NCBI GenBank assembly: GCA_965242865.1
Contig: CBDETK010000013.1
Coordinates: 2,720,001 to 2,784,000, forward strand
Direction of reading: 5' to 3'
Source: Candidatus Latescibacterota bacterium
GTDB lineage: Bacteria > Latescibacterota > UBA2968 > UBA8231
Length of the DNA: 64,000 bases
Both the position numbers and the translations under genes were made by a program. Position 1 is the stretch's first letter. Each line of letters opens with the position of its first letter. Below are positions 1,319 through 42,982 of the stretch, piece by piece. A model generated the notes under the pieces. It worked only from the letters and a program-made list of their open reading frames with translations. It did not search any database and had not been told where the DNA came from.

Positions 1319-2716
1319 ATGGCTACAAACCTGAAACCCTACCCCTCCTACAAGCCCTCCGGCGTCGAGTGGCTCGGCGAGGTGCCCGCGCATTGGGAGG
1401 TGCGACGAGTCAAGCACGCATTTAGACGAATCGTCGGAGGATCAACGCCATTGAGCAACGAGATGGCCTACTGGGATGGCACGATTATTTGGGTCACGCC
1501 AACCGACATCGGCAGAGTGACACGGTTGCGGGACTCTCTGCGTCGGATTACGAGAAAGGGGTTTGACTCTTGCTCCGCTACATTAGTGCCTGTTGGAAGT
1601 TTAGTGGTCACGTCGAGAGCACCCGTAGGAAACGTGGCTCTTGCAGAAGTCCCGCTCTGTACCAATCAAGGTTGCAAAGCCTTGGTTCCAGATAGCCAAG
1701 TCATTGCTTCTGCCTATGGCTATCAAGTGTTTGGGATACTCAAAGATGAGCTTCAGAGCTTGGCCAATGGCACTACATTTACCGAAATTTCAACCAACGC
1801 TCTCGGAAATGTTTTATTGCCCATCCCGCCCCTCCCCGAGCAAGCCGCCATCGTCCGCTATCTCGACCACACCGACGGACGCATTCGCCGCTACCTCCGC
1901 AGCCGGAAACGGCTCATCGAGTTGCTCAAAGAGTATCGACAGGCCGTCGTCCACGAGGCGGTCACACGCGGGCTTGACCCGGACGTGTCCCTCAAGCCCT
2001 CCGGCGTCGAGTGGCTCGGCGACGTACCGACGCATTGGGAGGTGCGACGACTGCGATACGCTGTTAAAATGAAGGTGAGTAACGTTGATAAACACAGCAA
2101 AGACGAAGAGCTTCCCGTCCGACTTTGCAATTATGTTGACGTGTACAAAAACGACCGCATTACCGAGAGGGTGCCGTTTATGAGAGCCACGGCAAAGGTG
2201 GATGAAATGGATCGCTTCCGGTTAGAAATAGGCGACGTTCTGATTACCAAAGATTCGGAAGTATGGAACGACATTGGGGTGCCTGCGTTTGTTGAGTATT
2301 CGGCAAGAGATTTGGTTTGCGGGTATCATTTGGCCTTGTTGCGTTCAATGAAGAGTGTGCTCAATGGTGCGTATCTATTCTATTCTTTACAGAGTTCGGC
2401 GATTGCTTCTCAGTTCCATATCGCGGCCAACGGGGTAACTCGCTATGGCTTGTCTCATCATGCCATCAAATCCGCGCTTTTGCCCATTCCATCCCTCGCC
2501 GAGCAAGCCGCCATCGTCCGCTATCTCGACAAACAGACCGCCGCCATCGACGCTGCCATGGCTCGCGCCCAGCAGGAGATCGAATTGTTGAGCGAATACC
2601 GTATCCGTCTGATTGCCGACGTGGTCACCGGCCAAGTGGATGTGCGCGAGGCAGCCGAACTATCTTATCTCGGACAAGGTGATAGCACCAAAGGCGATGG
2701 TGGAGAAGGTAGCTAG
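1319..2716 (+). CDS. hsdS: Type I restriction-modification specificity subunit
   Basis: Two-TRD architecture with repeated KPSGVEWLG.VP.HW and P.L.EQAAIVRYLD blocks; C-terminal EYR.RLIADVVTGQVDVR. Start placed at ATG 1319. Confidence 0.95.
   Translation: MATNLKPYPSYKPSGVEWLGEVPAHWEVRRVKHAFRRIVGGSTPLSNEMAYWDGTIIWVTPTDIGRVTRLRDSLRRITRKGFDSCSATLVPVGSLVVTSRAPVGNVALAEVPLCTNQGCKALVPDSQVIASAYGYQVFGILKDELQSLANGTTFTEISTNALGNVLLPIPPLPEQAAIVRYLDHTDGRIRRYLRSRKRLIELLKEYRQAVVHEAVTRGLDPDVSLKPSGVEWLGDVPTHWEVRRLRYAVKMKVSNVDKHSKDEELPVRLCNYVDVYKNDRITERVPFMRATAKVDEMDRFRLEIGDVLITKDSEVWNDIGVPAFVEYSARDLVCGYHLALLRSMKSVLNGAYLFYSLQSSAIASQFHIAANGVTRYGLSHHAIKSALLPIPSLAEQAAIVRYLDKQTAAIDAAMARAQQEIELLSEYRIRLIADVVTGQVDVREAAELSYLGQGDSTKGDGGEGS
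1333..1376 (+). repeat. 44-bp direct repeat, copy 1 (hsdS 5' conserved block); copy 2 at 13520-13563
   Basis: gaaaccctacccctcctacaagccctccggcgtcgagtggctcg versus gaaaccctacccatcctacaagtcctccggcggcgagtggctcg; 41/44 identical by manual alignment. Confidence 0.95.
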
Positions 2717-2743
2717 CACTGGAAAACTCAGGAGGAGTGCAAA

Positions 2744-4834
2744 ATGAAATTGACCATAAAGCAGTTTCGAGTTCTGAATTACCGCAACATTGACGATAGC
2801 GGCTGGATCCCACTCGAGCGCGTGACGGCTTTTGTTGGCCGGAACGAATCCGGCAAGACTACTCTGCTAAAGGCCCTGCACAAGTTCAATCCGGCAACCA
2901 CTGAGCCTTACAACGCGCAATGGGATTTTCCGCGTGACCGATTCACGGCTGAGTATCGAGATGGTAGCAAATGGCCGGTTTGTGAGGTAGAATTTGAACT
3001 TTCGGCTGAATTTCAACAGGAACTTAGGGAACAGTTGAACGGTTCTGAGATACCGAATAAGGCGATTTTGACGCGATTCTATGACGGGTCTCTAAAGTTC
3101 AAATACGACATAGAGATTCCGCTGGACCTGATTGATCCTGATGAGTTACAAGAGACGCTGAATGTATTCGCGAAAGAGGCACGGCGGCTTTCGTCCCCAG
3201 ACTATCAAGAGCATGAAATGCAAGGGATCAGGACAAATCTGGCGAATTGGGCTGATGAAAAGAAAGACGCTATTGCGGGATTCCAAGATTTGCGAACCGA
3301 TGAAGGTGTTAGACTGTTGCGCCAAGTGAGGGAAGAAGTGAACAGATTTGCACATCCTACAACGGCCGATCTCATTGAGGTTCTAAATGAGAAGGTCAAT
3401 TGTCTGCTCAGCCAAGCTGAAAAGCCCTCAATTCCAGAACAGCTTGATAAAGCTGTCGAGAGTGAGCTGCCTGTTTTTATTTATTTTGAGAACTATGGAA
3501 TCCTTGACAGCGCGGTGTACTTGCCGCGATTCTTGGAGGATTTGAGGTCGAAACAGCAAGTTTCGCGTATTCGGACTATCAATGCGATGTTCAAACATGT
3601 TAATCTCACTGCCAAAGAAATTGCAGATTTAGGCGATGGAGAGACAAGACAAGCACGCAGATATGGTTCTCAAGTTACCGAAGGTATGATTCAAAATGAT
3701 CAGGAGCAGGTGGCTCTGCGAAGTATCAAGTTAAACTCGGCATCTAATGATATTTCAAAAAAATTTAGCCAGTGGTTTGGTCAGAGGCGACACAAAATCA
3801 GCTATCAGGCTGACGGCGATTATTTTCGTATATGGGTATCTGACGATCGAAGACCAAATGTGGATATAGAATTGGAAAGTCGTAGCAAAGGCTTTCAATG
3901 GTTCTTCTCGTTTTACTTGCTGTTTTTGGTGGAATCAGAGGAAGGGCACAAGGACGCTGTCTTACTATTAGACGAGCCGGGGTTACACTTGCACCCAACC
4001 GCACAGCAAGAACTACTATCGTTTTTTGAAAAATTGTCGGAAGATAATCCGCTTATCTACACCACGCACTCTCCGTTCTTGATAGATGGCGAGTATATAC
4101 ACCGCGTTCGGCCTGTAACCGAAGATGAAACCGGACATTCGCGCATCAGTATCGATGGCTGGCCGAAAGACAGGGAAACGATTTTCCCTCTGCAAGCGGC
4201 GGCGGGTTACGCAATGGTACGCGGGCTTTTCCAGCATAAAAAGAACGTGTTGGTGGAAGGGATGGCGGATTACCTTTATCTCCACAGTCTGAATCTTCAT
4301 TGTCGTGCTCTCAGGCGTCAGAGTTTATCTGACGATATCTACATAACGCCGTGTGGAGGAACCAAAAACGTTGGTCATATCGCGTCGTTGTTCCTTGGGC
4401 AGAAAGTGCGTCCGGTGATCTTGCTTGATGGCGACACTGCTGGGAGGGCACGGCGAGATTCCCTGATGAAGGAATTGTATGCGGGCAATGAAAAGGCAGT
4501 ATTGATGTTGGGAGATGTGTTAGACCAAGAGGAGTGCGAGGTTGAGGATATCATTGGTGAGGAGACAATTCTGGCAGCACTGAGTGAGTTCGTTGACAAG
4601 ACAGTAAGTCTGAACCAAGATGATCGTAACCGAGGTAGCCTCGTTGACCAAATCAGGTGTGCTACTGATCGAGATAACATAGAGTTGCCAGAAGGCTGGA
4701 AGCCAGAGGTTGCGCGCCAGATCGTCTTATCGTGGTCGACGGCTAAGTCAACAGAAATACCGGAAGACATTTTGGATAGGGCAGAGAGACTATTCAAGGA
4801 ATTGACGAGGCGTTTTGAAGATATAGATCTGTAA
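2744..4834 (+). CDS. OLD-family ATP-dependent nuclease (ABC/AAA_15-type ATPase plus TOPRIM)
   Basis: Walker A GRNESGKT, signature SKG, Walker B LLLDEPGLHLHP, H-loop TTHSP, TOPRIM LVEG..D and LLDGD..G. RBS AGGAGG; lower GC than the flanks. Confidence 0.85.
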   Translation: MKLTIKQFRVLNYRNIDDSGWIPLERVTAFVGRNESGKTTLLKALHKFNPATTEPYNAQWDFPRDRFTAEYRDGSKWPVCEVEFELSAEFQQELREQLNGSEIPNKAILTRFYDGSLKFKYDIEIPLDLIDPDELQETLNVFAKEARRLSSPDYQEHEMQGIRTNLANWADEKKDAIAGFQDLRTDEGVRLLRQVREEVNRFAHPTTADLIEVLNEKVNCLLSQAEKPSIPEQLDKAVESELPVFIYFENYGILDSAVYLPRFLEDLRSKQQVSRIRTINAMFKHVNLTAKEIADLGDGETRQARRYGSQVTEGMIQNDQEQVALRSIKLNSASNDISKKFSQWFGQRRHKISYQADGDYFRIWVSDDRRPNVDIELESRSKGFQWFFSFYLLFLVESEEGHKDAVLLLDEPGLHLHPTAQQELLSFFEKLSEDNPLIYTTHSPFLIDGEYIHRVRPVTEDETGHSRISIDGWPKDRETIFPLQAAAGYAMVRGLFQHKKNVLVEGMADYLYLHSLNLHCRALRRQSLSDDIYITPCGGTKNVGHIASLFLGQKVRPVILLDGDTAGRARRDSLMKELYAGNEKAVLMLGDVLDQEECEVEDIIGEETILAALSEFVDKTVSLNQDDRNRGSLVDQIRCATDRDNIELPEGWKPEVARQIVLSWSTAKSTEIPEDILDRAERLFKELTRRFEDIDL

Positions 4835-4870
4835 ATTAAGGACGTTCCGTGTAGGGAAGGCAAACCGACC

Positions 4871-5929
4871 ATGATCAAATACAAGACCGGCGACATTCTC
4901 GCGGAAGATGCCGAAGCTCTGGTCAACACCGTCAACTGCGTCGGGGTCATGGGGCGTGGCATCGCGCTACAGTTCAAGCGTGCCTTTCCCGAAAATTTCA
5001 AAGCCTACGCCGCACGGTGCAAGCGCGGCGCAATGCAACCGGGACAGGTGTTCGTCTTCGAGACCGGGCAACTTATCCATCCCCATTACATCATCAACTT
5101 TCCCACCAAACGGCACTGGCGGGGCAAAAGCCGCTTGGAGGATATCGAATCCGGCTTGGTGTCGCTCGCAACAGAAATACGAACGCGGGGCATCCGCTCC
5201 ATTGCCATCCCCCCGCTTGGCAGCGGGCTGGGTGGCTTGGAGTGGTCGGAAGTACGCCGGCGTGTGCAGGCGGCTTTGGAGAAATTTGACGATGTGAAGG
5301 TCGTCGTATTTGAGCCTAGCGGCCCGGTGGATCAAAGGGCCAATCGTTCGCGCGAGGTCCCGGAAATGACAGCAGGACGGGCCGCGCTTATCGGGCTAAT
5401 GGACCGCTACCTACGCGGTCTGCTGGATCCATTCATTACCCTGCTCGAAGTACACAAGCTCATGTACTTCATGCAGACCGCTGGCGAGCCGTTGAGGCTG
5501 CGATTCGCCAAAGGTCCTTACGGTCCTTACGCCGATAACCTCCGGCACGTCTTGCATGCCATGGAAGGACACTTTGTGTCCGGTTACGCAGACGGGGGCG
5601 ATGCTCCCCACAAAGAATTGGAACTGGTGCCGGGTGCGCTTGAGGATGCACGCACCTTTCTCGCGAACACGCCGCAAACGCCCGCCCGCTTTGAAAAGGT
5701 GGCCGCCCTCGTTGAGGGGTTTGAGTCGTCCTTTGGCTTGGAATTGCTGGCCACCGTCCATTGGGTCGTCCGCGAAGAGCAGGCATCGACCCTTGCCGAG
5801 GTCGTCGAGCGAACCTATATGTGGAACGAGCGAAAGAGACAGTTCACCCGCCGACAACTCGGCATTGCCCTCGATGTGCTCGCCGAGAAGAACTGGATAG
5901 AAGGCCCCCGCGCACCCCACACCCCATGA
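4871..5929 (+). CDS. darG: DarG-type macrodomain ADP-ribosylglycohydrolase (antitoxin); no adjacent darT
   Basis: N-terminal macrodomain GDIL...ALVNTVNCVGVMGRGIALQFK, IINFPTK.HW, SIAIPPLG.G.GGL.W. C-terminal domain LLEVHKLMYFMQ, GPYGPY, GFES.FGLELLATVHW. Confidence 0.9.
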   Translation: MIKYKTGDILAEDAEALVNTVNCVGVMGRGIALQFKRAFPENFKAYAARCKRGAMQPGQVFVFETGQLIHPHYIINFPTKRHWRGKSRLEDIESGLVSLATEIRTRGIRSIAIPPLGSGLGGLEWSEVRRRVQAALEKFDDVKVVVFEPSGPVDQRANRSREVPEMTAGRAALIGLMDRYLRGLLDPFITLLEVHKLMYFMQTAGEPLRLRFAKGPYGPYADNLRHVLHAMEGHFVSGYADGGDAPHKELELVPGALEDARTFLANTPQTPARFEKVAALVEGFESSFGLELLATVHWVVREEQASTLAEVVERTYMWNERKRQFTRRQLGIALDVLAEKNWIEGPRAPHTP

Positions 5930-5930
5930 C

Positions 5931-6000
5931 CGCCGCCATGGCCCGCGCCCAGCGGGAGATCGAATTGCTGAGCGAATACCGGACGCGCCTGATCGCCGAT
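5931..6000 (+). repeat. Diverged copy of the hsdS 3' conserved segment (2551-2620)
   Basis: 60/70 nt identical by manual alignment; encodes AAMARAQREIELLSEYRTRLIAD versus AAMARAQQEIELLSEYRIRLIAD in hsdS. Confidence 0.92.
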
Positions 6001-6002
6001 AA

Positions 6003-6176
6003 GTGGGCGAAAAGCATAAGCATCGGTGGTCCGAACGGTATCGGGACAAGGAAGCCTATATTCCGAATGACATCACCGCGTCGATTGCGGAACCCGCGGA
6101 TGTTTGGAAGCAATTTTGTGGAGAAGCGGGTATTGAACACAATGGTAGGATGAACCCACCGGAGATATTCCAATGA
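6003..6176 (+). pseudogene. 3' half of a small DUF6978-like gene, the usual upstream partner of DUF1828; 5'-truncated
   Basis: Reads VGEKHKHRWSERYRDKEAYIPNDIT...VWKQFCGEAGIEH..., is preceded by an in-frame TAA at the junction with the hsdS fragment, and ends in an ATGA overlap with the next gene. Family recalled from memory. Confidence 0.6.
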
Positions 6177-6937
6177 ACCATAGAGATATACAGGACGAAA
6201 TCGGCGCGTTGTTCACGTGTACGGAGCACGGCGACTATCAGCGGATTCGCACGCCGTATTTGTATCCCGATGGCGACAATATCGACCTGTTCTGCGCGGT
6301 CGATGGCGATGCGATAACCGTAACCGATCTCGCCGAGACCACGGGCTGGCTTTGGATGCAGTCGCTGTCGTTGCGGCGTTCTCCCAAGCAGAACCGCCTC
6401 ATTGAAGACACTTGTGTTACGCACGGGGTTGAGTTCTATCGCGGTATGCTCCAAGCGCGGTGTCGGCCCGGCGACTCGTTGGCCGCGGCGGTTACGCGCG
6501 TGGCGCAAGCGGCCCTGCGGGTCTCTGACCTGTGGTTCACGTTCCGAACTCGCGCCTTTGAATCAGTCACCGATGAAGTGGCTGCCTACCTGACCGAACG
6601 CGCATTGCCCTTTGATCGAGCCGAAAAATTAGTCGGTCGCTCAGGGCGCGATTGGACCATAGACTTCCGCATTCGCACCGGCGAGCGTAGTGCGCTAGTC
6701 TATGTGTTGAGCACCGGAAATCGATCCTCGGCACCTAAAGTCACCGAGCACGTACTGGCCGCTTGGCACGATCTATACCATCTCGCAACGGGTGCTGAAG
6801 CACTGCATTTCGTTTCCCTTTTTGACGACACCGCCGATGTTTGGGCAACGGCAGACTTCCATCTCGTCGAATCGCTGTCCACCGTGTCGCGCTGGTCAAA
6901 GCCGGATGAGTTCGCCGAAGTGTTGACGGAGGCTTGA
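6173..6937 (+). CDS. DUF1828/DUF1829-like protein
   Basis: IRTPYLYPDGDNIDLF and ITVTDLAET N-terminal pattern; C-terminal L.GRSG..W.IDF restriction-endonuclease-like segment. Confidence 0.7.
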   Translation: MNHRDIQDEIGALFTCTEHGDYQRIRTPYLYPDGDNIDLFCAVDGDAITVTDLAETTGWLWMQSLSLRRSPKQNRLIEDTCVTHGVEFYRGMLQARCRPGDSLAAAVTRVAQAALRVSDLWFTFRTRAFESVTDEVAAYLTERALPFDRAEKLVGRSGRDWTIDFRIRTGERSALVYVLSTGNRSSAPKVTEHVLAAWHDLYHLATGAEALHFVSLFDDTADVWATADFHLVESLSTVSRWSKPDEFAEVLTEA

Positions 6938-7014
6938 GATGCTCCCCACAAAGAATTGGAACTGGTGCCGGGTGCGCTTGAGGATGCACGCACCTTTCTC
7001 GCGAACACGCCGCA
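6938..7014 (+). repeat. Exact 77-bp copy of internal darG sequence 5600-5676
   Basis: gatgctccccacaaagaattgg...gcgaacacgccgca is identical at both positions and starts immediately after the DUF1828 stop codon. Confidence 0.97.
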
Positions 7015-7132
7015 TCCACAAACCATCTTCGGTCATAACGGATATCATTGCCCTTTTCGCGCCTTTCGCGTATTTCGTAGTAGAGTGCAACCGCTACGAT
7101 AGAAGAACCGCCCAACGAGGATAACCGGAACC

Positions 7133-8290
7133 ATGGGGAGCCGACGCTTGCAGATAACCTTGCAACCAGCCGTGTTGCAGTGGGCGCGAGAACGTGCGGG
7201 CATTAGCTTGGAGGAATTGGCCTGCAAAGCAAAGGTCAGCCAAGAGCGCGTACTAGAGTGGGAACGTTCCGGCAAAATCAGCATTGCCCAAGCCGACCGG
7301 CTCGCCGATTGCACCCATACGCCCCTCGGCCTTCTGTATTTGACCTATCCACCTGCCGAGCCCCTTCCAATAGCGGATTTCAGGACGCGGACCGATGACC
7401 CGCCCCCGCACTCAAGTCCCGACTTGCTCGAGACGGTCTATCTCATGCAGCGGCGCCAGTCTTGGATGCGCGACGAACTCATTGAGAGCGGCACGGAGCC
7501 GCTGGCCTACATCGGTGCTTATGAGCTAGATGAGTCGCCCTTACAAATGGCGGCAGCGATGCGCCAGTTGCTGAAACTCGCCGACGGTTGGGCGGCGGTG
7601 GAAGGCTCTTGGACCAATGCGCTGGGACTTATGCGAGATCGGGCTGAAGCGGCTGGCGTGTTGGTGGTTTTCAATGGCATCGTGGGCAACAATACGCGCC
7701 GCAAACTGGACCCGGACGAGTTCCAAGGTTTTGCCCTCGTGGATGCGTATGCCCCGCTCATTTTTGTCAATGGGGCCGACGTCAAAGCCGCGCAGATATT
7801 TACCCTAGCTCACGAGTTGGCGCATCTCTTCGTCGGAGAATCTGGTTTATCCAAGTTCGTCGACCTCGATCCAGGACACCATGCAATCGAACAGTTCTGC
7901 AACGAGGCGGCTGCCGAATTTCTGGTCCCGGAGCAGGACTTACGCGCTTTTTGGCCCACAGCCAAGTCGTCTGCCGACCCCTATCAAACCCTTGCCCGGC
8001 ACTTCAAGGTGAGCTCTATCGTAGGTGCTCGCCGCGCTCTGGATATCAGTTTGATCAGCCGAGACGCCTTCCATCAATTTTATCGCGCCTATCAGGAAGA
8101 CCAGCACCAACGAAGATCAGGCGGCGATTTTTGGAATCTTCCCAAATGGCGCATCGGCCCCAAGTTTGCCGCCGCCGTGATTCGTGCGACCAAGGCGGGT
8201 CGCTTGTCCTATCGCGATGCGTATGCGCTCACTGGGTTAAAAGGGACCAGCTTTGAAAAGCTAACCGATAAGATGGGTATTCAGCTATAA
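7133..8290 (+). CDS. XRE-HTH plus ImmA/IrrE (COG2856-like) Zn metallopeptidase; probable antitoxin or regulator
   Basis: N-terminal HTH (LQWARERAGISLEELA...WE.SG), FQGFALVD..APLIFVN, FTLAHELAH (HExxH), EQFCNEAAAEFLVP. Confidence 0.9.
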   Translation: MGSRRLQITLQPAVLQWARERAGISLEELACKAKVSQERVLEWERSGKISIAQADRLADCTHTPLGLLYLTYPPAEPLPIADFRTRTDDPPPHSSPDLLETVYLMQRRQSWMRDELIESGTEPLAYIGAYELDESPLQMAAAMRQLLKLADGWAAVEGSWTNALGLMRDRAEAAGVLVVFNGIVGNNTRRKLDPDEFQGFALVDAYAPLIFVNGADVKAAQIFTLAHELAHLFVGESGLSKFVDLDPGHHAIEQFCNEAAAEFLVPEQDLRAFWPTAKSSADPYQTLARHFKVSSIVGARRALDISLISRDAFHQFYRAYQEDQHQRRSGGDFWNLPKWRIGPKFAAAVIRATKAGRLSYRDAYALTGLKGTSFEKLTDKMGIQL

Positions 8291-8412
8291 TGAGTTGGTA
8301 TCAATCTTTGCGCGTACTCGATGCCAATGTCTGCCGTCAGTTCGGCGTCCGTTATCAGGATACCTATGCCATGCTGAGCGACCTCAACGTTCAATTCGAG
8401 TGGAAGCGATGA
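8290..8412 (+). pseudogene. DUF4411-like PIN-domain gene collapsed to 40 codons by an internal in-frame deletion
   Basis: MSWYQSLRVLDANV|CRQFGVRYQDTYAMLSDLNVQFEWKR joins a PIN-type N-terminus (LDANV) to a DUF4411-type C-terminus. It overlaps the upstream stop (TAATG) and the hsdR start (ATGA). Confidence 0.7.
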
Positions 8413-11390
8413 CCACCGACACCACCGAACGCGGCCTAGAGCAGCGCGTCTGCGAGCTGCTGACCCACCGGGCCGACGCGCCGGACGCCGCTGAGGTGCG
8501 GGAACGCCCGGCCACTTATGACATCGGCTGGCTCAACGGGCACTCCGACGACTACGACCGCGAACACTGCATAGACTTGGCCCAGTTGACCGCCTTCCTC
8601 AAGGCAACGCAGCCGCACCTCGTCGCCGCGCTAGCTTTGGACGCGGACAGCCCGGTGCGCCGCAAGTTCCTCGCCCGCCTGAAAAACGAAGTCGGCAAGC
8701 GCGGCATCGTCGAAGTCCTCCGCAACGGCGTTAAGCACGGGCCGCACACCATCGCGCTCTTGTACGGCACTCCCTCGCCGGGCAACCCGCAGGCCGCAAC
8801 CCGCTACGAGCAGAACCGCTTTTCGGTGACGCGCCAGTTGTCGTACAGCAACGCCAACAAGCGGCGGACCCTCGACCTCGCGCTGTTCATCAACGGCCTG
8901 CCGGTGGCGACCTTTGAGTTGAAAAACAGCCTCACCAAACAGACCGCGGCCGATGCCGCAGAGCAATACAAACGCGACCGCGATCCCAAAGAGGAGCTCT
9001 TCCGCCTCGGCCGCTGCTTGGTCCACTTTGCCGTGGATGATCTCGAAGTGCGGTTCTGCACCCACCTCAACGGCAAGGCGTCGTGGTTCCTGCCGTTCAA
9101 CCAGGGTTGGAACGACGGCGCGGGCAACCCGCCCAACCCCAACGGCATCAAGACCGATTACCTGTGGCGTGAGGTGCTGACTCGGCAAAGCCTGACCGAC
9201 ATCGTGGAGAACTACGCCCTGCTGATCGAATCCACGGACCCCGAGACCGGGCGCAAAGCCAAGGCGCAAATCTGGCCGCGCTATCACCAGTTGGACGTGG
9301 TGCGGAAACTGTTGGCCTCGGTCGCCGAGCACGGCGTCGGGCAACGCTATCTCATCCAGCACTCGGCCGGCAGCGGCAAGTCCAACTCCATTGCGTGGTT
9401 GGCGCACCGGCTCATCGGCTTGGAAAAGGGCGGCCGGCCGGTCTTTGATTCCATCATCGTCGTAACGGACCGCAAAATCTTGGACCGGCAGATCAACGAC
9501 ACCATCCGGCAGTTCGCGCAAGTGGGGGCGACCGTGGGCCACGCGGAAAATGCCGGCGATTTGCGCCGCTTTATCGCCGCCGGCAAGAAAATCATCATCT
9601 CCACCGTGCAAAAGTTCCCGTTCATCTTGGACGAGATCGACAACGATCATCCAAGCCGCCGCTTTGCCATCGTCATCGACGAAGCCCACTCCAGCCAAGG
9701 CGGGCGCACGGCCTCGGCCATGGCGAGCGTCTTGGGGGATCCCGCCGCGGATGCGGACGACACGGTTGAGGATCAAATCAACCGCATCATTGAACAGCGG
9801 CGTTTGCTGGCCAACGCCAGTTATTTCGCCTTCACCGCCACGCCCAAGAACAAGACGCTGGAATTGTTCGGCGCGCCCGCGCCGCAACCCGACAGCGCGA
9901 TCCAGCATCGGCCCTTCCACAGCTACGCCATGAAGCAGGCCATCCAAGAGGGGTTCATCTTGGACGTGCTCGGGCACTACACGCCGGTGACGAGCTACTA
10001 CCGCCTCGCCAAAACCACGACCGACGACCCTAAGTTCGACGCCAACAAGGCGCACAAAAAGCTCATCCGCTATGTGGAAACCCACAGCCGAGCCATTCGC
10101 CTCAAAGCCGAGATCATCGTCGATCACTTCCACGAGCAGGTGCTGGCCCCGCGCAAAATCGACGGACAGGCGCGAGCCATGGTCGTCACCAGCGGCATTG
10201 AGATGGCCATAGCTTACTATCGCGCCATCCGCGACTACCTCGCCGAGCGCGGCAGCCCGCACAAAGCCATCGTCGCCTTTTCCGGCGAGGTCGAGTACGG
10301 CGGCGAGCAAGTGAGCGAAGCGCGGTTGAACGGGTTTCCGTCGTCGCAGCTCGCCCGCAACATTCAGCGCGACCCCTATCGGTTTCTCGTCTGCGCGGAC
10401 AAGTTCCAGACCGGCTACGACGAGCCGCTGTTGCACACCATGTACGTCGATAAGGTTTTGTCCGGCATCCGGGCGGTGCAGACCTTGTCGCGCCTCAACC
10501 GCGCCCACCCGGGCAAGCGCGATACGTTTGTGCTTGATTTCCACAACGACGCCGACGCCATCAAAGACGCGTTTGCCGCGTACTACCGCACCACCATCTT
10601 GGCGGACGAAACCGACCCGAACAAATTGCACGACCTCAAGGCCGCACTGGACGACCGGCAGGTCTATTCCGCCGAGCAAATCGATGCGCTGGTGGCGGCC
10701 TATTTGAGCGGCGACGACCGCGCTGTTCTCGACCCCATCTTGGACGAGTGCGTGACCATCTATCGCCGCGATCTCGACGAAGACGAGCAGGTCGATTTCA
10801 AGGGCCATGCCAAAGCCTTCACCCGCACCTACAACTTCCTGTCGCAGGTGTTGCCCTACGAGAATGCCGATTGGGAAAAGCTGTCCATCGTTCTGACCCT
10901 GCTCATTCCCAAGCTGCCGACGCCCGCGGCCGAGGACAGGGCGCTCGGCATTGAGAATGCCATCGACATGGACAGCTACCGCGCCGAGAAACAGGCGACC
11001 CTGCACATCCTGCTGCCCGACGAGGACGCCGAAATCGAGCCGGTGCCGGCCAGCCGCGGCGGGTACCAGCCTGAGCCTGCAATGGATCGGCTCTCCAACA
11101 TTCTGCGGGAATTCAACGATTTGTTCGGCGATATTCCGTGGACGAGTGCGGATCGCATCCGCCGGATGATCACCGAGGATGTGCCGCAACTGGTCGAGGC
11201 GGACCATGCCTATCGCAACGCCCGGCAACACGCGGACGCGCAGAACACCCGCATTGAGCACGACCGGGCCTTGGCAAAGGCGATCACCGCCCTGCTCGCC
11301 GACGACGCCGAACTCTACAAGCAATACTCGGACAACGCAGCATTCAAACGCTGGCTGGCCAATAGCGTGTTTGAACTGACCTACCGATAG
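8409..11390 (+). CDS. hsdR: Type I restriction endonuclease subunit R
   Basis: DLALFINGLPVATFELKN nuclease motif, QHSAGSGKS Walker A, DEAH, FTATP, KFQTGYDEP, QTLSRLNR. Start at ATG 8409. Confidence 0.96.
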   Translation: MTTDTTERGLEQRVCELLTHRADAPDAAEVRERPATYDIGWLNGHSDDYDREHCIDLAQLTAFLKATQPHLVAALALDADSPVRRKFLARLKNEVGKRGIVEVLRNGVKHGPHTIALLYGTPSPGNPQAATRYEQNRFSVTRQLSYSNANKRRTLDLALFINGLPVATFELKNSLTKQTAADAAEQYKRDRDPKEELFRLGRCLVHFAVDDLEVRFCTHLNGKASWFLPFNQGWNDGAGNPPNPNGIKTDYLWREVLTRQSLTDIVENYALLIESTDPETGRKAKAQIWPRYHQLDVVRKLLASVAEHGVGQRYLIQHSAGSGKSNSIAWLAHRLIGLEKGGRPVFDSIIVVTDRKILDRQINDTIRQFAQVGATVGHAENAGDLRRFIAAGKKIIISTVQKFPFILDEIDNDHPSRRFAIVIDEAHSSQGGRTASAMASVLGDPAADADDTVEDQINRIIEQRRLLANASYFAFTATPKNKTLELFGAPAPQPDSAIQHRPFHSYAMKQAIQEGFILDVLGHYTPVTSYYRLAKTTTDDPKFDANKAHKKLIRYVETHSRAIRLKAEIIVDHFHEQVLAPRKIDGQARAMVVTSGIEMAIAYYRAIRDYLAERGSPHKAIVAFSGEVEYGGEQVSEARLNGFPSSQLARNIQRDPYRFLVCADKFQTGYDEPLLHTMYVDKVLSGIRAVQTLSRLNRAHPGKRDTFVLDFHNDADAIKDAFAAYYRTTILADETDPNKLHDLKAALDDRQVYSAEQIDALVAAYLSGDDRAVLDPILDECVTIYRRDLDEDEQVDFKGHAKAFTRTYNFLSQVLPYENADWEKLSIVLTLLIPKLPTPAAEDRALGIENAIDMDSYRAEKQATLHILLPDEDAEIEPVPASRGGYQPEPAMDRLSNILREFNDLFGDIPWTSADRIRRMITEDVPQLVEADHAYRNARQHADAQNTRIEHDRALAKAITALLADDAELYKQYSDNAAFKRWLANSVFELTYR

Positions 11391-11409: not shown

Positions 11410-13509
11410 ATGCAAGACAGCCAACTCAATCGCATTCCCAACTTTATATGGGGCATTGCCGACGATGTGCTGCGCGACCTGTACGTGCGCGGCAAGTACC
11501 GCGACATCATTTTGCCCATGACGGTGATTCGGCGGCTGGACGCGGTGCTCGAACCGACCAAACAAGCCGTGCTCGCCATGCAGGCCCGGCTCAACGACCA
11601 AGGCATTGTCGAACAGGAAGCAGCCCTCAAGCAGGCCGCTGGCCATGCCTTTTACAATGCGTCCCAATTCACGTTGCGCGACCTCCGCGCCCGGGCCACT
11701 CGGCAGCAGCTCCGGGCGGACTTTGAGATTTACTTGGACGGGTTTTCGTCCAATGTGCAGGACATCTTGAAGAACTTTGAGTTTCGCAACCAGATTCCGC
11801 GCCTGTCCGACGCCGATGTGCTCGGCGCGCTCATCGAGAAATTCCTGTCGCCGGAGATCAACCTCAGTCCCTATCCGGTCGAAAGGCATCCCGGCCTCGA
11901 CAACCACGCCATGGGCACGATTTTCGAGGAACTGGTGCGGCGGTTCAACGAGGAAAACAATGAGGAGGCCGGCGAACACTGGACCCCGCGCGACGCGGTC
12001 AAGCTGATGGCCAATCTCATCTTCCTGCCGGTGGCCGACGCGATCGAGTCGAGCACCTACCTGCTCTACGATGGCGCGCTCGGCACCGGCGGCATGCTGA
12101 CCGTAGCCGAGGAAACCCTGCAGGAACTCGCCCGCGCCCGCGGCAAGCACGTATCCACCCATCTCTACGGCCAAGAGATCAACGCCGAGACCTACGCGAT
12201 CTGCAAGGCCGACCTGCTGCTCAAGGGCGAGGGCAGTGCGGCGGACAACATCGTCGGCGGGCCGGAACACTCCACCCTCGCCAACGACGCTTTCCCGGCT
12301 CACAAATTCGATTTCATGCTCAGCAATCCGCCCTACGGCAAGAGCTGGAAGCAAGACCTCGACCGCTTGGGCGGCAAGCGCGGCGTGGCGGACCCGCGCT
12401 TCATCATCGCGCACGCTGGCGACCCAAACTATTCCCTGCTCACCCGCTCCAGCGACGGACAGATGCTGTTCCTCGCCAACATGCTGAGCAAGATGAAGCG
12501 CGACACCGCGCTCGGCAGCCGCATCGCGGAGGTCCACAACGGCAGTTCCCTGTTCACCGGCGACGCCGGGCAGGGCGAGAGCAACATTCGCCGCTGGATC
12601 ATCGAAAACGACTATCTCGAAGCCATTGTCGCCCTGCCGCTCAACATGTTCTACAACACCGGCATCGCCACCTATATCTGGGTGCTGACCAATCGCAAGC
12701 CGGCGCATCGGCAGGGCAAGGTGCAGCTCATCGACGCCACCGAGTGGTTCAGTCCGTTGCGTAAGAATCTCGGCAATAAGAACTGCGCGTTGTCCGAGGC
12801 TGACATCGGCCGCGTCTGCGATGCGTTTCTCGCCTTTGAGGAAAGCGAGCACTCAAAAATTTTCCCCAACCGGGCCTTCGGCTACTATCGCGTGACGATT
12901 GAGCGCCCCTTGCGGCTTGCTGTCGAGCTATCGTCGGAGCATCTCGAACGGTTCCGCGCCGCCTGTGCGGAAGTGGGCGAAGAACCGCTCGCCGAGGCCG
13001 TTGAGCGGATAGCGACCACCATCGGCGACGGGCCGCACCGCGACTTCAACCTGTTTGTGGATGTGGTCAGACGCGACACCAACCTGACGGCCAAGCGCAA
13101 GAAGCTGCTGCAAACGGCGCTGGCGTTCCGCGACGAGGCCGCCGCGCCGGTCGTCAAAAAGACTCACCGGCCGGGCAAGATGGAGCCGGCTCCGCTTTGC
13201 GGCTTGGTCGAACGGCCGGGGTGCGTGGTCGAATACGAGCCGGACGGCGAGTTGCGCGACAGCGAACAGGTGCCGTTGCTCGCCGAGGGCGGCGTTGAGG
13301 GCTACCTGCGCCGCGAGGTGCTGCCCTACGCGCCGGACGCTTGGTACGACCCAACGAGCGTCAAGACCGGCTACGAGATCAGCTTCACCCGGCATTTTTA
13401 CAAGCCGCAACCGCTGCGCTCCCGAAGCGAAATCCGCGCCGACATCTTGGCGTTGGAGCGCGAGAATGAAGCGGTGCTGGCGGAGATCGTCGGGGCCAGC
13501 GGCGAATGA
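11410..13509 (+). CDS. hsdM: Type I restriction-modification methyltransferase subunit M
   Basis: FIWGIADDVLRD N-terminus, GEHWTPRD, YD.A.GTGGML motif I, NPPY motif IV, FYNTGIATYIW. Confidence 0.96.
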   Translation: MQDSQLNRIPNFIWGIADDVLRDLYVRGKYRDIILPMTVIRRLDAVLEPTKQAVLAMQARLNDQGIVEQEAALKQAAGHAFYNASQFTLRDLRARATRQQLRADFEIYLDGFSSNVQDILKNFEFRNQIPRLSDADVLGALIEKFLSPEINLSPYPVERHPGLDNHAMGTIFEELVRRFNEENNEEAGEHWTPRDAVKLMANLIFLPVADAIESSTYLLYDGALGTGGMLTVAEETLQELARARGKHVSTHLYGQEINAETYAICKADLLLKGEGSAADNIVGGPEHSTLANDAFPAHKFDFMLSNPPYGKSWKQDLDRLGGKRGVADPRFIIAHAGDPNYSLLTRSSDGQMLFLANMLSKMKRDTALGSRIAEVHNGSSLFTGDAGQGESNIRRWIIENDYLEAIVALPLNMFYNTGIATYIWVLTNRKPAHRQGKVQLIDATEWFSPLRKNLGNKNCALSEADIGRVCDAFLAFEESEHSKIFPNRAFGYYRVTIERPLRLAVELSSEHLERFRAACAEVGEEPLAEAVERIATTIGDGPHRDFNLFVDVVRRDTNLTAKRKKLLQTALAFRDEAAAPVVKKTHRPGKMEPAPLCGLVERPGCVVEYEPDGELRDSEQVPLLAEGGVEGYLRREVLPYAPDAWYDPTSVKTGYEISFTRHFYKPQPLRSRSEIRADILALERENEAVLAEIVGASGE

Positions 13510-13574
13510 TCGGCGATCGGAAACCCTACCCATCCTACAAGTCCTCCGGCGGCGAGTGGCTCGTTGCCCATTGA
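13506..13574 (+). pseudogene. hsdS: hsdS 5' stub (22 codons) translationally coupled to hsdM; contains copy 2 of the 44-bp repeat
   Basis: ATGA overlap with the hsdM stop; MIGDRKPYPSYKSSGGEWLVAH* matches the start of the full hsdS (LKPYPSYKPSGVEWL). Confidence 0.88.
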
Positions 13575-13622: not shown

Positions 13623-15194
13623 ATGCGCTTTTTCACCACTGCCGGTCCCATCAAGCCGGCCAGGCACTATTGCATCCCGCCGCTGGAACGCTTGGACCTC
13701 GCCGCGGTACTCGCCCTGATTCGGGACGAGAAGTATTTCGTCCTACACGCGCCCCGGCAGACGGGCAAGACCTCTATCCTGCTGGCCTTGCGCGACCTGC
13801 TCAACGCCGAGGGCATCTATCGTTGTGTGTACGTCAATGTCGAAGGGGGGCAAGCCGCCCGCGAAGATGTGGAACAAGTGACGCGCACCATGTTGGGCGA
13901 GTTGGCATCTCGGGCGCGTTTAATCGGCGACGAACTTCTAGACGAGATTTGGTTCGACATCTTGACCAAGTACGGTCCACACGCTGCTTTGCGCGAGGCG
14001 TTGACGCGCTGGGCCTCGGCGTCCCCCAAGCCGCTGGTGCTGCTCATCGACGAGATCGACGCGCTGATCGGCGACGCGCTCCTGTCCGTGTTGCGGCAGT
14101 TGCGGGCGGGCTACGACCTGCGACCAGCAGGGTTTCCGCAAAGCGTGGTGCTATGCGGGGTGCGCGACGTGCGCGACTACCGCATCCATTCTAGTTCGGC
14201 CAATGCCACCATCGCCGGAGGGAGCGCGTTCAACATCAAATCGCGCTCGTTGCGCTTGGGCGACTTTTCGCCCGACGAGGTGCAAGCTCTGCTCGCACAG
14301 CACACTGCGGAGACCGGGCAGGCGTTTACCGCCGACGCCTTGGAGACGATCTGGACGCAGACCCAAGGGCAGCCGTGGTTGGTCAATGCCTTGGCCGATC
14401 AGACCTGCTTCCGCGATGGCGGGGCTGACCGGCGCGAGCCAATCACGGCTGCCGTTATCATTGAAGCGAAAGAGCACCTCATCCTGCGTCGCGAAACCCA
14501 CCTCGACCAATTGGCGGACAAGCTCCAAGAGGAGCGCGTGCGGCGCATCGTGGAGCCGCTGTTGAGCGGAGCTGAAAAGAGCGACTTTTCGGCCCGCGAT
14601 CTCGAATACATCCGCGACTTGGGCTTGATCGCCCAGCACGACCCGCTCCGCATCGCCAATCCCATTTACGCGGAAATCGTGCCGCGCGAACTGACCTATT
14701 CCACCCAATCCGGGCTCGTCCAAGACCCGGCCTGGTACGTCCATGCCGATGGTCGCTTGGACGTGGTCAAACTGCTGACCGCATTCCAGACGTTCTTCCG
14801 CGAACACTCCGAGCATTGGGTCAAGCGATTTCAATATCAAGAGGCCGGTCCGCAGTTGCTGCTGCAGGCGTTTTTGCAACGGATCGTCAACAGCGGTGGG
14901 CGCATCGAGCGCGAGTATGGCTTGGGTCGCATGCGCACCGATCTGCTCCTCGTCTGGCCGCAGGGCGAGCGCACGCGCCAGTTCGTGATCGAATGCAAAG
15001 TGCTCCACAAGAGCTTGGAGCAAACTATCGCCGAGGGGGTGGCGCAGACTGCCGAGTACATGGATCGCTGCGCGGCCGAGGCGGGTCATCTGGTGATTTT
15101 TGACCGGCGCGAGGGCCGGCGTTGGGAGGACAAGGTGTTTCGAGATCGCCGAGTGTCGGATGGTGGGGTCGCGATCGACATCTGGGGCTTATGA
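13623..15194 (+). CDS. AAA-like P-loop ATPase with C-terminal PD-(D/E)xK nuclease domain
   Basis: HAPRQTGKTS Walker A, LLIDEID Walker B, TQGQPWLVN, C-terminal EREYGLG..RTDL...VIECK. Confidence 0.85.
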   Translation: MRFFTTAGPIKPARHYCIPPLERLDLAAVLALIRDEKYFVLHAPRQTGKTSILLALRDLLNAEGIYRCVYVNVEGGQAAREDVEQVTRTMLGELASRARLIGDELLDEIWFDILTKYGPHAALREALTRWASASPKPLVLLIDEIDALIGDALLSVLRQLRAGYDLRPAGFPQSVVLCGVRDVRDYRIHSSSANATIAGGSAFNIKSRSLRLGDFSPDEVQALLAQHTAETGQAFTADALETIWTQTQGQPWLVNALADQTCFRDGGADRREPITAAVIIEAKEHLILRRETHLDQLADKLQEERVRRIVEPLLSGAEKSDFSARDLEYIRDLGLIAQHDPLRIANPIYAEIVPRELTYSTQSGLVQDPAWYVHADGRLDVVKLLTAFQTFFREHSEHWVKRFQYQEAGPQLLLQAFLQRIVNSGGRIEREYGLGRMRTDLLLVWPQGERTRQFVIECKVLHKSLEQTIAEGVAQTAEYMDRCAAEAGHLVIFDRREGRRWEDKVFRDRRVSDGGVAIDIWGL

Positions 15195-41266: not shown

Positions 41267-42982
41267 CTACCACAACACCACAAAAAGCAGTACGCTGGCC
41301 ACGGCCAAATAGACCCCGATCCACACCCCCGGCCGCAAATACCACTTAGGACCATCCGCGCCGACCGCAAACGGATACTCCGGCCGGATGGGTGCTTCCA
41401 GCAGGGTTTTCTGCAACCAAGTGCAAGAGCCTTCCAGTTCCGCGATCCGCCGGGCCATTAGCGGGCGCAGTGCGGCCGGATCCTCGTGGCGGACGTAAAT
41501 CAGCCCGCGCAGCTCTTCGTCGCGCACGGGACCGCGCCGCCAGTCGATCAGCTTGGAAGCGATGAGCATGCTCGCCGCTGGCAGCACCAAGTTCCACAGG
41601 TAAGTCCACCACGTGTTCTGATACCACACCGGCAGGGGCCACTCGTAGAAGTCGGCCAAGAGCGCCGACAGCCCGTAGCCAAGCCCCACCAGCAAGCCGA
41701 CGATCCCGGTCTCGCGATGTACGCGCGTGAAAACCCCCATCAGAATGACCGTCATCAGGGGCACAGCAATGGCCCCAGCCAGCCGCAGGTAGAACAGCAG
41801 CATCCCCTTCTCGCCCAAAAAGGGCACATAGACAAAGCCCATCGCCAGAATAATTGGCACCAAGATCCGGCCTACCTTGGTGTAGTGGGCGTCCGTGGCG
41901 TCCTTGACCATGGTGCGCGCGTACACATTGCGGACAAAGAGCGAGGAAATGCCAATGCTAATGGAGTCAAAGGTCGAGTACCCAGCCGCCACCAGCCCGG
42001 CGACCACCAGCCCGACCAACCCGGCGGGCAGGTACTCTTTGATCATCAGTGGATAGGCTTGATCGACGATTTCCAAGCCGGGAAACTGCGCCCGCGCCAT
42101 CGGCCCCAAGCTGACGTTGAAAAACAGGCATATCGCCGTGGCGATGCTGGCCACCAGCGCGGCCATTTTGAAGTCCCACTCCGAGCGCGCGCCGAGGAAG
42201 CGGAGCGCCTCGTACTGGTTGACGACCGCGTACGTGGTCAACACCACTAAAAAGCCGAATATCACGATGAGAGGCGGCACCCCAGGGGGCGAATACCCCC
42301 CCACATGCAGCAGCGTATCCGCCAGCCCTTCTTCCACGGCCTCCAGCCGCGCCGTCACCCCTTCCCAGCCGCCCAGTCCCGAATAGACGAATCCCCAGAG
42401 TACAAAAGAGGCCACGAGCATTGCCGCGCTTTGCAACGCGTCGGTCAGCACCCCAGCGCGCAAGCCGCCGCGCACGATGTAGAGCGCCGAGCTGAGTGCC
42501 GCGCCCACCACCACCACCCAGCAAGTCGTCTCCTCGATTCCAGCGACGACGTTGAGGACTAAGAACATGGAAAAGAAGATGTTGCCCAGCACGTTGGTGC
42601 GCGATTGGACGTTGATCAAGACCGCTAGCAGGCGGGTCGCTGGCCCAAAGCGGAACTCCAGCCACTCGGCGTTGGTGAAAACCCCAGAGCGGTACATCGG
42701 CACGATGACGAAGAAGCTGAGTACGGTCCAGCCCACGGCAATGCCCAACCACCACTGCGCCAGTTGCGACAGCCCCAACTGATACGACCCGCCGACAATG
42801 CCGACGTAATCGCCGCTATCGACGGCCGTGCCAAACGCCGACAGCCCGATCACCCACCAAGGCATGGATTTGGCCGCGAGATACCAGTCAAAACTCTCCC
42901 CCTTGTTGCGGAAGGCAATCAGGCTGTAGGCGACGATGCCGCCGTTGAGGACCAGGACGACGGCCCAGTCTAAAGGGGTCAT
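41267..42982 (-). CDS. Sodium:solute symporter
   Basis: Y.LA.KSMPWW.IGLS, EWLE.RFG, GGLRA.V.TD.LQ, GLVGL..AGL.AA..ST.DS. Confidence 0.9.
   Translation of the reverse strand: MTPLDWAVVLVLNGGIVAYSLIAFRNKGESFDWYLAAKSMPWWVIGLSAFGTAVDSGDYVGIVGGSYQLGLSQLAQWWLGIAVGWTVLSFFVIVPMYRSGVFTNAEWLEFRFGPATRLLAVLINVQSRTNVLGNIFFSMFLVLNVVAGIEETTCWVVVVGAALSSALYIVRGGLRAGVLTDALQSAAMLVASFVLWGFVYSGLGGWEGVTARLEAVEEGLADTLLHVGGYSPPGVPPLIVIFGFLVVLTTYAVVNQYEALRFLGARSEWDFKMAALVASIATAICLFFNVSLGPMARAQFPGLEIVDQAYPLMIKEYLPAGLVGLVVAGLVAAGYSTFDSISIGISSLFVRNVYARTMVKDATDAHYTKVGRILVPIILAMGFVYVPFLGEKGMLLFYLRLAGAIAVPLMTVILMGVFTRVHRETGIVGLLVGLGYGLSALLADFYEWPLPVWYQNTWWTYLWNLVLPAASMLIASKLIDWRRGPVRDEELRGLIYVRHEDPAALRPLMARRIAELEGSCTWLQKTLLEAPIRPEYPFAVGADGPKWYLRPGVWIGVYLAVASVLLFVVLW

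Follow-up and report, generated by a model that had tools for sequence, protein, structure and literature searches.

The window analysed here is a 64,000-nucleotide stretch of a metagenome-derived genome of a Candidatus Latescibacterota bacterium, a type of bacterium found in sponge metagenomes, and it carries three adjacent two-gene cassettes of toxin–antitoxin (TA) type, each of which has lost all or most of one partner. These cassettes probably decayed toxin first, within a recombining type I restriction–modification (R-M) defence island. The window corresponds to positions 2720001–2784000 of a 5.6-Mb contig, and the genome comprises 6.0 Mb in 13 contigs (completeness 93.6%, contamination 6.8%). 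The intact genes encode DarG, a DUF1828 protein, and a fused XRE-HTH and ImmA/IrrE peptidase; the partners lost or truncated are darT, a DUF6978 gene, and a DUF4411 gene. The three losses are real lesions and not a coincidence of open reading frame (ORF) calling. The genes of the three cassettes are as follows.

4871–5929, + strand: darG, intact orphan, 352 amino acids (NCBIfam antitoxin_DarG NF048014, profile positions 1–338 of 338, E = 5e-138)
6003–6176, + strand: 3′ remnant of DUF6978 (PDC-M24A), 57 codons (PDLC04533, profile positions 90–143 of 151, E = 1e-25)
6173–6937, + strand: DUF1828 (PDC-M24B), intact (PDLC04540, profile positions 6–254 of 256, E = 6e-103)
7133–8290, + strand: XRE-HTH and ImmA/IrrE (M78) peptidase gene, intact (HTH_3, E = 4e-5; Peptidase_M78, E = 8e-16)
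8290–8412, + strand: remnant of DUF4411 (PIN-like), 40 codons, with an in-frame internal deletion

The DarG protein scored 460 bits against NF048014 (cut-off of 250) and matched the PADLOC DarG profile with an E-value of 4e-137. Its macrodomain (residues 1–151) was aligned to PDB 5m3i/5m31, and its C-terminal DarT-binding domain (residues 166–336) was aligned to 7yk3_B. The PTK(R/K)HW stretch was conserved in the alignment to 5m31, with a lysine at query residue 80, which we take to be the catalytic K80 of Thermus DarG. The closest darG, found in G110 (a genome of the same genus; related genomes are cited by our own labels), is paired with an intact darT and was 94.6% identical in nucleotides and 93.8% in amino acids over all 352 residues. 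A comparison with G019 (same genus) had raised the possibility that the last 10 codons of darG were foreign; this was rejected, as the G110 copy matched through nucleotide 5942 and the 3′ end is thus native. The stop codon of the preceding gene, encoding an OLD-family protein, and the darG start are 36 bp apart (4835–4870), and the OLD 3′ flank (to 4852) is fused to darG (from 4867) via 14 unmatched bases. The PF14487 search gave no DarT match across the 6.0-Mb genome, and the best tblastn hit with G110 DarT as the query had an E-value of 1.8. As the same PF14487 search detected DarT in 37 of 131 other genomes of the class, the absence search works.

The DUF1828 protein, which had 1729 homologues, was 91–94% identical in amino acids to those of G032 and G025. 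The DUF6978 remnant upstream overlaps the DUF1828 start via ATGA and also matched the DUF6978 profile at positions 90–132 of 133. Compared with the genes of G025 and G032, ~347 bp are deleted, so that the 5′ 60% of the gene is gone and about the last 40% is left. The conserved DUF6978 stretch in the alignment reads DHHNPQC...GEKHKH, of which the DHHNPQC motif is deleted from the remnant. A whole-genome search found no other DUF6978.

The ImmA peptidase retains the HExxH motif as HELAH (at about 7809–7823) and was 86% identical in amino acids to the G032 protein; its RmrA-type PADLOC matches were partial (residues 195–319). Relative to the intact 149-residue DUF4411 gene of G032, ~380 bp (~126 internal codons) are gone from the DUF4411 remnant, and its first ~14 codons now run directly into the last ~26. 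The deletion lies between two copies of CCAATGT (7-bp microhomology), and the frame is kept. The remnant matched Pfam DUF4411 weakly, at positions 135–159 (E = 0.023). Overlapping codons link the remnant to its neighbours: TAATG combines the ImmA stop with its start, and ATGA its stop with the hsdR start. PMC5499597 describes four acidic active-site residues for the DUF4411 family, and since ~126 codons are deleted, most of them would be expected to be lost. One other DUF4411 gene is present in the assembly, on contig C8 (C8:1-1350), where it is cut by the contig end and follows its own ImmA gene, the product of which is 26% identical to the ImmA of the window. Contig C8, which may derive from the same or from another organism, has a GC content of 62.6%, compared with 60.6%.

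A preliminary description of this DNA had reported the same three modules, and the follow-up agrees with it closely. The intact darG with 36 bp upstream and no darT was confirmed by the full-length profile match, the 4835–4870 gap, and the zero DarT matches in the genome, and the reduction of the PIN-like partner of the XRE-ImmA/IrrE peptidase to 40 codons was demonstrated by alignment to the G032 DUF4411. The coupled partner upstream of the intact DUF1828, described as cut to its 3′ half, indeed retains only its 3′ part, which at ~40% is slightly under half.

Breakpoints were placed using intact cassettes in relatives, which were 88–95% identical in nucleotides. In a DNA search of 40 related genomes, pieces of the locus were found at 88–92% identity, scattered over several loci in two families. 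G031 carries darT-darG-ImmA-DUF4411-hsdR in one row. G025 has hsdS, a full DUF6978, DUF1828, the first 43 darT profile positions, and then an hsdS tail. G032 has ImmA, the 149-residue DUF4411, hsdS, a DUF6978 with a nonsense codon, DUF1828, a darT remnant (first 12 codons and 3′ end kept), and a Schlafen-like gene. As the arrays of G031, G025, and G032 hold the toxins in the same order, the three cassettes stood side by side, toxins included, until the losses occurred. G110 has hsdS, an intact darT, and darG. G019 has, at one locus, OLD (90% identical), an hsdS tail, a Schlafen/AlbA_2 gene, and hsdR-hsdM (92% identical), and at a second locus 10 kb away, SIR2-HerA, hsdS, a 110-codon darT remnant with an in-frame internal deletion that keeps both gene ends, and darG (91% identical). 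The order in the window is a rearranged and trimmed version of the arrays seen in relatives. The rearrangements left the following scars.

5600–5676, + strand: 77-bp segment within darG, with an exact copy (100% identity) at 6938–7014
5931–6000, + strand: hsdS 3′ tail remnant (84–87% identical to 2544–2619; 95.7% identical to the hsdS tail of G110)
6938–7014, + strand: 77-bp darG copy immediately behind the DUF1828 stop, where darT is located in relatives
13520–13563, + strand: hsdS 5′ head remnant directly after hsdM (93% identical to 1333–1376)

The hsdS tail at 5931–6000 (PADLOC Specificity_I positions 409–431, E = 0.012), a scar of recombination, borders on the darG 3′ flank, the similarity reaching back to ~5924 and overlapping the darG stop codon, and the DUF6978 deletion runs from within this tail to codon ~90. 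In G025 and G032, darT starts after DUF1828, and its first bases share a 6-bp GATGCT with the start of the 77-bp repeat; if a deletion occurred at this microhomology, darT would be lost together with codons 1–243 of a darG copy. The 77-bp copy would be either what is left of a second darG or a patch templated during rearrangement. Its far end joins 103 bp (7015–7117) that lie ahead of the ImmA leader and had no match to the darG–ImmA spacers of G031, G034, or G059. Remnants of hsdS tails, hsdS heads, and hsdR heads were found at cassette borders in four genomes. Short copies of the hsdR 5′ head (~30–110 bp, 87–89% identical to 8409–8517 of the window) were also observed at cassette borders without a following hsdR (loci L016, L019, L040, and L050 in G032, G031, and G059), and one of those in G032 is fused to the start of a Schlafen/AlbA_2 gene.

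Population evidence was drawn from contigs of public assemblies, among them X1, X4, X5, and X8. X1, which may be the source of the window, was identical to it. X5, from another study and labelled as a sponge metagenome, was ~98% identical. Its contigs span OLD–darG (4600–5628), the darG 3′ end through the hsdS tail and the DUF6978 remnant to DUF1828 (5647–6780), and the junction of DUF1828 with the repeat, where one extra C is present as in G025. A further X5 contig has 380 extra nucleotides exactly at the DUF4411 deletion of the window, i.e., a full-length DUF4411. Because X5 shares the junctions yet keeps these 380 nucleotides, the DUF4411 deletion is polymorphic and arose recently, after the rearrangements. 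An X4 contig of 1797 nucleotides, with zero differences from the window, joins 5105–5599 to 6938–8239. This junction deletes 1338 bp between the 77-bp repeats, comprising the darG 3′ part, the hsdS tail, the DUF6978 remnant, and DUF1828, and is the product of recombination between the two repeats. As X4 also has the DUF4411 deletion, it represents a close sister strain in which the 1338-bp deletion is derived. An X8 contig joins 6937 back to 5600 at a depth of 3.8; it may be a low-coverage path through the repeat and was not relied on. Stretches of X4 and X8 that no contig covers were likewise left out of the evidence, and none of the 22 public runs listed was of RNA.

The same losses recur in related bacteria. 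DarTG was counted in 132 species-representative genomes of the class and PDC-M24 in 168 genomes of the phylum; the genomes are related to each other, and many are metagenome-assembled. Of 18 full-length canonical DarG, 13 had an intact DarT adjacent and five did not: none was found in the window and G054, positions 1–91 and 1–47 remained in G019 and G051, respectively, and the G001 gene was frameshifted with stops. All 14 full-length canonical DarT adjoined a DarG-type macrodomain gene, which in G007 consists of the macrodomain only. For PDC-M24, 15 full-length M24B loci comprised seven with an intact M24A, seven in which M24A was broken or missing, and one (G008) with stops in both genes. The M24A lesions were a TAG in G011, a TGA in G032, a frameshift in G057, and remnants in G090 and the window, and no M24A was found in G106 and G092. 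Conversely, none of 11 intact M24A lacked an open DUF1828-bearing neighbour, four of which were ~1200 amino acids with DUF1828 at the N-terminus. There were 27 nearly full-length ImmA orthologues with an identity of at least 58%; 14 adjoined a full DUF4411 and 13 did not, with three remnants (the window, G035 at positions 121–159, and G009 at positions 1–51) and 10 with no DUF4411 adjacent. In G059, ImmA is followed by darT-darG. Loss of the antitoxin side with the toxin kept was never seen for DarTG or PDC-M24 in the genomes counted. Since the lesions differ between genomes, they are separate events. The product of the three loss rates (5/18, 7/14 for intact M24B, and 13/27) is ~0.07 if the losses are assumed to be independent; as each kind of loss is common in the phylum, the co-occurrence of three is not very improbable.

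Partial and fused relatives of these genes were observed besides. At 41870–42325, contig C8 (154 kb) encodes a macrodomain protein of 294 amino acids that matches only the N-terminal half of DarG. ORFs of ~200–250 amino acids that match only the DarG C-domain (profile ~158–338) occur in G037, G038, G061, G072, G080, G079, G036, and G002; in type I R-M loci, several of them closely precede ImmA, DUF6978, or hsdR. They represent either an independent family related to the DarG C-domain or darG 3′ remnants that arose repeatedly. G025 (C1:1359786-1360892) and G032 (C1:1045706-1046893) have a full DarT domain and a DarG-like macrodomain in one open frame of ~400 amino acids, which may encode a fused DarT–macrodomain protein; in the G032 copy, the macrodomain part is interrupted by stop codons. 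Proteins of 1188–1239 amino acids with an N-terminal DUF1828 domain were found in G077, G073, G079, G022, and G020, four of the five adjoining an intact DUF6978, and look like a larger PDC-M24 variant with a different C-terminal part.

The toxin of the PDC-M24 pair is probably DUF6978, as judged from the comparative asymmetry (7/14 versus 0/11); the predicted folds do not settle the choice. The DUF6978 model (pLDDT 83) gave no convincing structural match (Foldseek E-value no better than 0.09; best match VIA, Z of 5.6). In the DUF1828 model (pLDDT 68), the N-domain resembled YbjN and type III secretion chaperones (Z of 8–10.8), a protein-binding fold that would suit an antitoxin. The C-domain, a low-confidence part of the model, showed weak restriction-endonuclease-like matches (BstEII, Z of 8.2; Bax1, Z of 8.1) and also resembled Rossmann/receiver-like and generic α/β folds, and no (D/E)xK motif was seen on the expected strand when the alignment was inspected by eye. 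The ESM Atlas search returned DUF6978 and DUF1828/DUF1829 clusters only, and a literature search by the DUF1828 name found no paper on PDC-M24.

The surroundings of the three cassettes comprise the following genes.

2–1264, + strand: SLOG-TIR gene
1271–2716, + strand: hsdS, type I specificity subunit, intact (two Methylase_S domains; PADLOC Specificity_I, E = 5e-105)
2744–4834, + strand: OLD-family ATPase–TOPRIM nuclease gene (AAA_15, AAA_21, OLD-like TOPRIM)
8412–11390, + strand: hsdR (HSDR_N, SWI2_SNF2, ResIII; TIGR00348)
11410–13509, + strand: hsdM (HsdM_N, N6_Mtase; PADLOC MTase_I, E = 1e-245)
13623–15194, + strand: AAA_22 gene, multi-copy

The hsdR, hsdM, and hsdS genes are each present and open; hsdS is displaced ~5.7 kb upstream of hsdR, and only its head remnant follows hsdM. 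The darG, DUF1828, and XRE-ImmA modules all lie between hsdS and hsdR-hsdM, and because this gene order encloses them, they are inside one type I R-M operon. A promoter and terminator scan of 2600–8600 gave three promoter-like sites, where 3.9 were expected, and none of them was on the + strand. On both sides of the unit hsdS–cassettes–hsdR-hsdM lies a direct repeat derived from the hsdS 5′ head (1333–1376 and 13520–13563). The operon therefore resembles a circular permutation, such as would result from integration of a circular hsdR-hsdM-hsdS unit through hsdS or from trimming of a tandem copy. The gene at 2–1264, immediately before hsdS, is a fusion of SLOG (LD_cluster2) and a ThsB-like TIR, and its copy in G032 (88% identical) adjoins further TIR genes and an Nmad2 gene. 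The AAA_22/AAA_35 gene (523 amino acids, weak PDDEXK_9 tail) occurs at 13623–15194 of the window, at G000:C13:2717236-2718837, and in at least 10 other places in the genome. Its copies, in the host genome and relatives, are diverged (69–89% identity); two enclose the hsd island as a whole, and one breaks up the hsdS that follows hsdM. The gene behaves like a mobile or proliferating gene.

With these lesions, breakpoints, polymorphism, and phylum-wide asymmetry observed, toxin-first decay would connect them as follows. A type I R-M operon would have collected OLD nuclease, DarTG, DUF6978/DUF1828, and ImmA/DUF4411 cassettes between its genes, and the cassettes would have moved between operons and between families of bacteria through recombination at conserved hsd heads and tails, remnants of which would mark the joints. 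Each two-gene cassette would then have lost its toxin side by deletion (darT wholly, the 5′ 60% of DUF6978, and ~126 codons of DUF4411). The antitoxin-side genes would survive because toxin-first loss would be the only decay order that a cell survives; we infer such a viability filter as the cause of the asymmetry. The restriction operon is undisturbed, as the DUF4411 deletion keeps the stop/start overlaps of ImmA, the remnant, and hsdR, and keeping this translational coupling may have selective value. Non-polar toxin lesions that keep both gene ends in frame were found in DUF4411 of the window and darT of G019; darT of G032 also keeps its ends. The in-frame cases suggest that only lesions sparing downstream genes persist. 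The decay is still in progress, the sister strain having recombined the 77-bp repeats and thereby lost the darG 3′ part and DUF1828. Stepwise disarming, one of two interpretations offered in the preliminary description, is supported by the identifiable toxin-side deletions, the polymorphism of DUF4411, and the loss of part of darG and DUF1828 in the sister strain.

Several points weigh against this interpretation. The pairwise dN/dS (ratio of nonsynonymous to synonymous substitution rates, NG86) of darG was 0.165 between the window and G019 and 0.17–0.19 over three darG pairs; that of DUF1828 was 0.19–0.21 and that of ImmA 0.21, like those of hsdR (0.17–0.25) and OLD (0.22). The nonsynonymous/synonymous counts on the terminal branches of four darG sequences were 7/12 (window) and 14/23 (G019) for the orphans, compared with 6/11 (G110) and 15/26 (G076) for paired genes, and these small counts gave no sign of relaxation in the orphans. 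Judged from these rates, the survivors do not look like decaying genes. In PDC-M24, DUF1828 could instead be the effector, given the weakly restriction-endonuclease-like C-terminal half of its model, and relatives fuse the DUF1828 domain to proteins of ~1200 amino acids. The genomes compared are also kin, and their counts are not independent events, though the lesions differ. The constraint on darG fits continued function after toxin loss and would also fit a very recent loss of the toxin. The G019 darT remnant had 14 nonsynonymous and six synonymous changes, compared with 9/8 and 14/8 in intact genes, counts too small to date the loss.

A selected antitoxin bank, in which the orphans are kept to neutralise incoming DarT, DUF4411-type nucleases, or DUF6978 brought by phages, plasmids, or cassettes, was the other interpretation in the preliminary description, and we consider it possible but distinctly less probable than toxin-first decay. 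The orphan genes are intact with their motifs kept (both DarG domains and the lysine at the presumed K80 position, and HELAH in ImmA), their dN/dS is ~0.2, and terminal-branch constraint on darG equals that on paired genes. The preliminary description had named relaxed selection and cognate toxins elsewhere in the genome as evidence that would speak against a bank; the survivors showed dN/dS of 0.17–0.21, no higher than in paired relatives, no intact DarT or DUF6978 is left in the genome, and the C8 DUF4411 sits with its own ImmA. Exposure to incoming copies is plausible, as the cassettes are 88–95% identical across families, and phage orphan antitoxin-like enzymes that neutralise DarT are documented (PMC11257639). 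However, the sister strain dropped the darG 3′ part and DUF1828 in one step, and two of the three survivors are thus dispensable. The viability filter alone predicts the pattern, and the proximity of the three orphans is inherited from cassettes that already adjoined each other before the losses, as in G031, G025, and G032, where toxins are present. ImmA-type antitoxins are usually partner-specific, and the other ImmA/DUF4411 pair of the genome is only 26% identical. More doubtful still is the wider idea that, where cassettes jointed by hsd heads and tails move across families and repeatedly lose their toxin genes, purifying selection maintains the orphan antitoxins as a community-level immunity or anti-addiction repertoire against the same toxins arriving anew on cassettes, phages, or plasmids.

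Recruitment of the survivors to new jobs, e.g., ImmA regulating transcription of hsdR-hsdM or DarG pairing with the OLD nuclease, is improbable. ImmA, the 40-codon remnant, and hsdR are linked by overlapping stop and start codons, the OLD–darG junction is common to the ~98% identical X5 strain, and 10 of the 27 ImmA orthologues have no DUF4411 adjacent, with darT-darG following ImmA in G059. Against this, what follows OLD is an hsdS tail and then a Schlafen-like gene in G019 and an insertion sequence transposase in G032, and the closest darG (G110) sits after darT, not OLD. OLD–DarG was also tried as a conserved new pair and rejected, as the adjacency was not seen in G019, G032, or G110; the OLD-family gene is a separate defence cassette and no partner of darG.

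Chimeric metagenome-assembly joins as the source of the repeat and odd junctions, suggested by a repeat of exactly 77 bp with abrupt ends, equal to a common assembler k-mer size, and by the metagenomic origin of the genome (completeness 93.6%, contamination 6.8%), were rejected as very improbable, because the contig is 5.6 Mb long, every junction recurs in contigs of the independent X5 study, the X1 and X5 contigs end at the repeat borders exactly where the coexistence of both contexts would make them end, and an X5 unitig is the repeat itself.

The locus consists of orphan antitoxins left by TA decay in a defence island, a kind that is already known. As in DarTG, DarG is full length with both domains, and relatives hold canonical darT-darG in the same kind of locus; unlike DarTG, the window has an orphan DarG without DarT, adjacent or genome-wide. 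As in PDC-M24, a PADLOC candidate system, a full-length M24B is coupled by ATGA to an upstream M24A frame, whereas M24A of the window covers only profile positions 90–143 of 151 and its most conserved motif is gone. Compared with HTH-ImmA/IrrE (COG2856) and DUF4411 systems of the Rosmer type (RmrA), the fused HTH-M78 peptidase is likewise followed by a DUF4411 frame, which is here a 40-codon remnant, and the RmrA matches are partial. A classic case of a gene embedded in a type I R-M system is prrC, inside an hsd locus. Like type I R-M loci with embedded TA or abortive-infection genes, the window has defence and TA cassettes nested between hsd genes; it differs in the hsdS tail, hsdS head, and hsdR head remnants at the borders and in the near-identical cassettes across families. 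PMC5499597 places PIN-like TA modules next to hsdM/hsdS and describes DUF4411.1 as a putative toxin beside HTH-DUF955 (HTH-peptidase) proteins. Orphan antitoxins and anti-addiction modules likewise lack toxins. PMC11257639 reports that the phage orphan DarG1-like AdfN neutralises DarT1 and that experimental support for the anti-addiction idea is limited. The window differs in that its orphans visibly arose by in situ deletion, not separate acquisition.

The locus is a well-resolved natural example of the decay of TA-type cassettes, toxin first, by small deletions, with intermediate and later stages of the decay visible in sister strains and related genomes. It also provides a comparative hint for the uncharacterised PDC-M24: DUF6978 was never kept alone (0/11) and DUF1828 often was (7/14), which predicts that DUF6978 is the toxic or effector partner. 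Should the orphans protect the cell from toxins that arrive from outside, the locus would be a rare chromosomal instance of anti-addiction, an idea proposed long ago.

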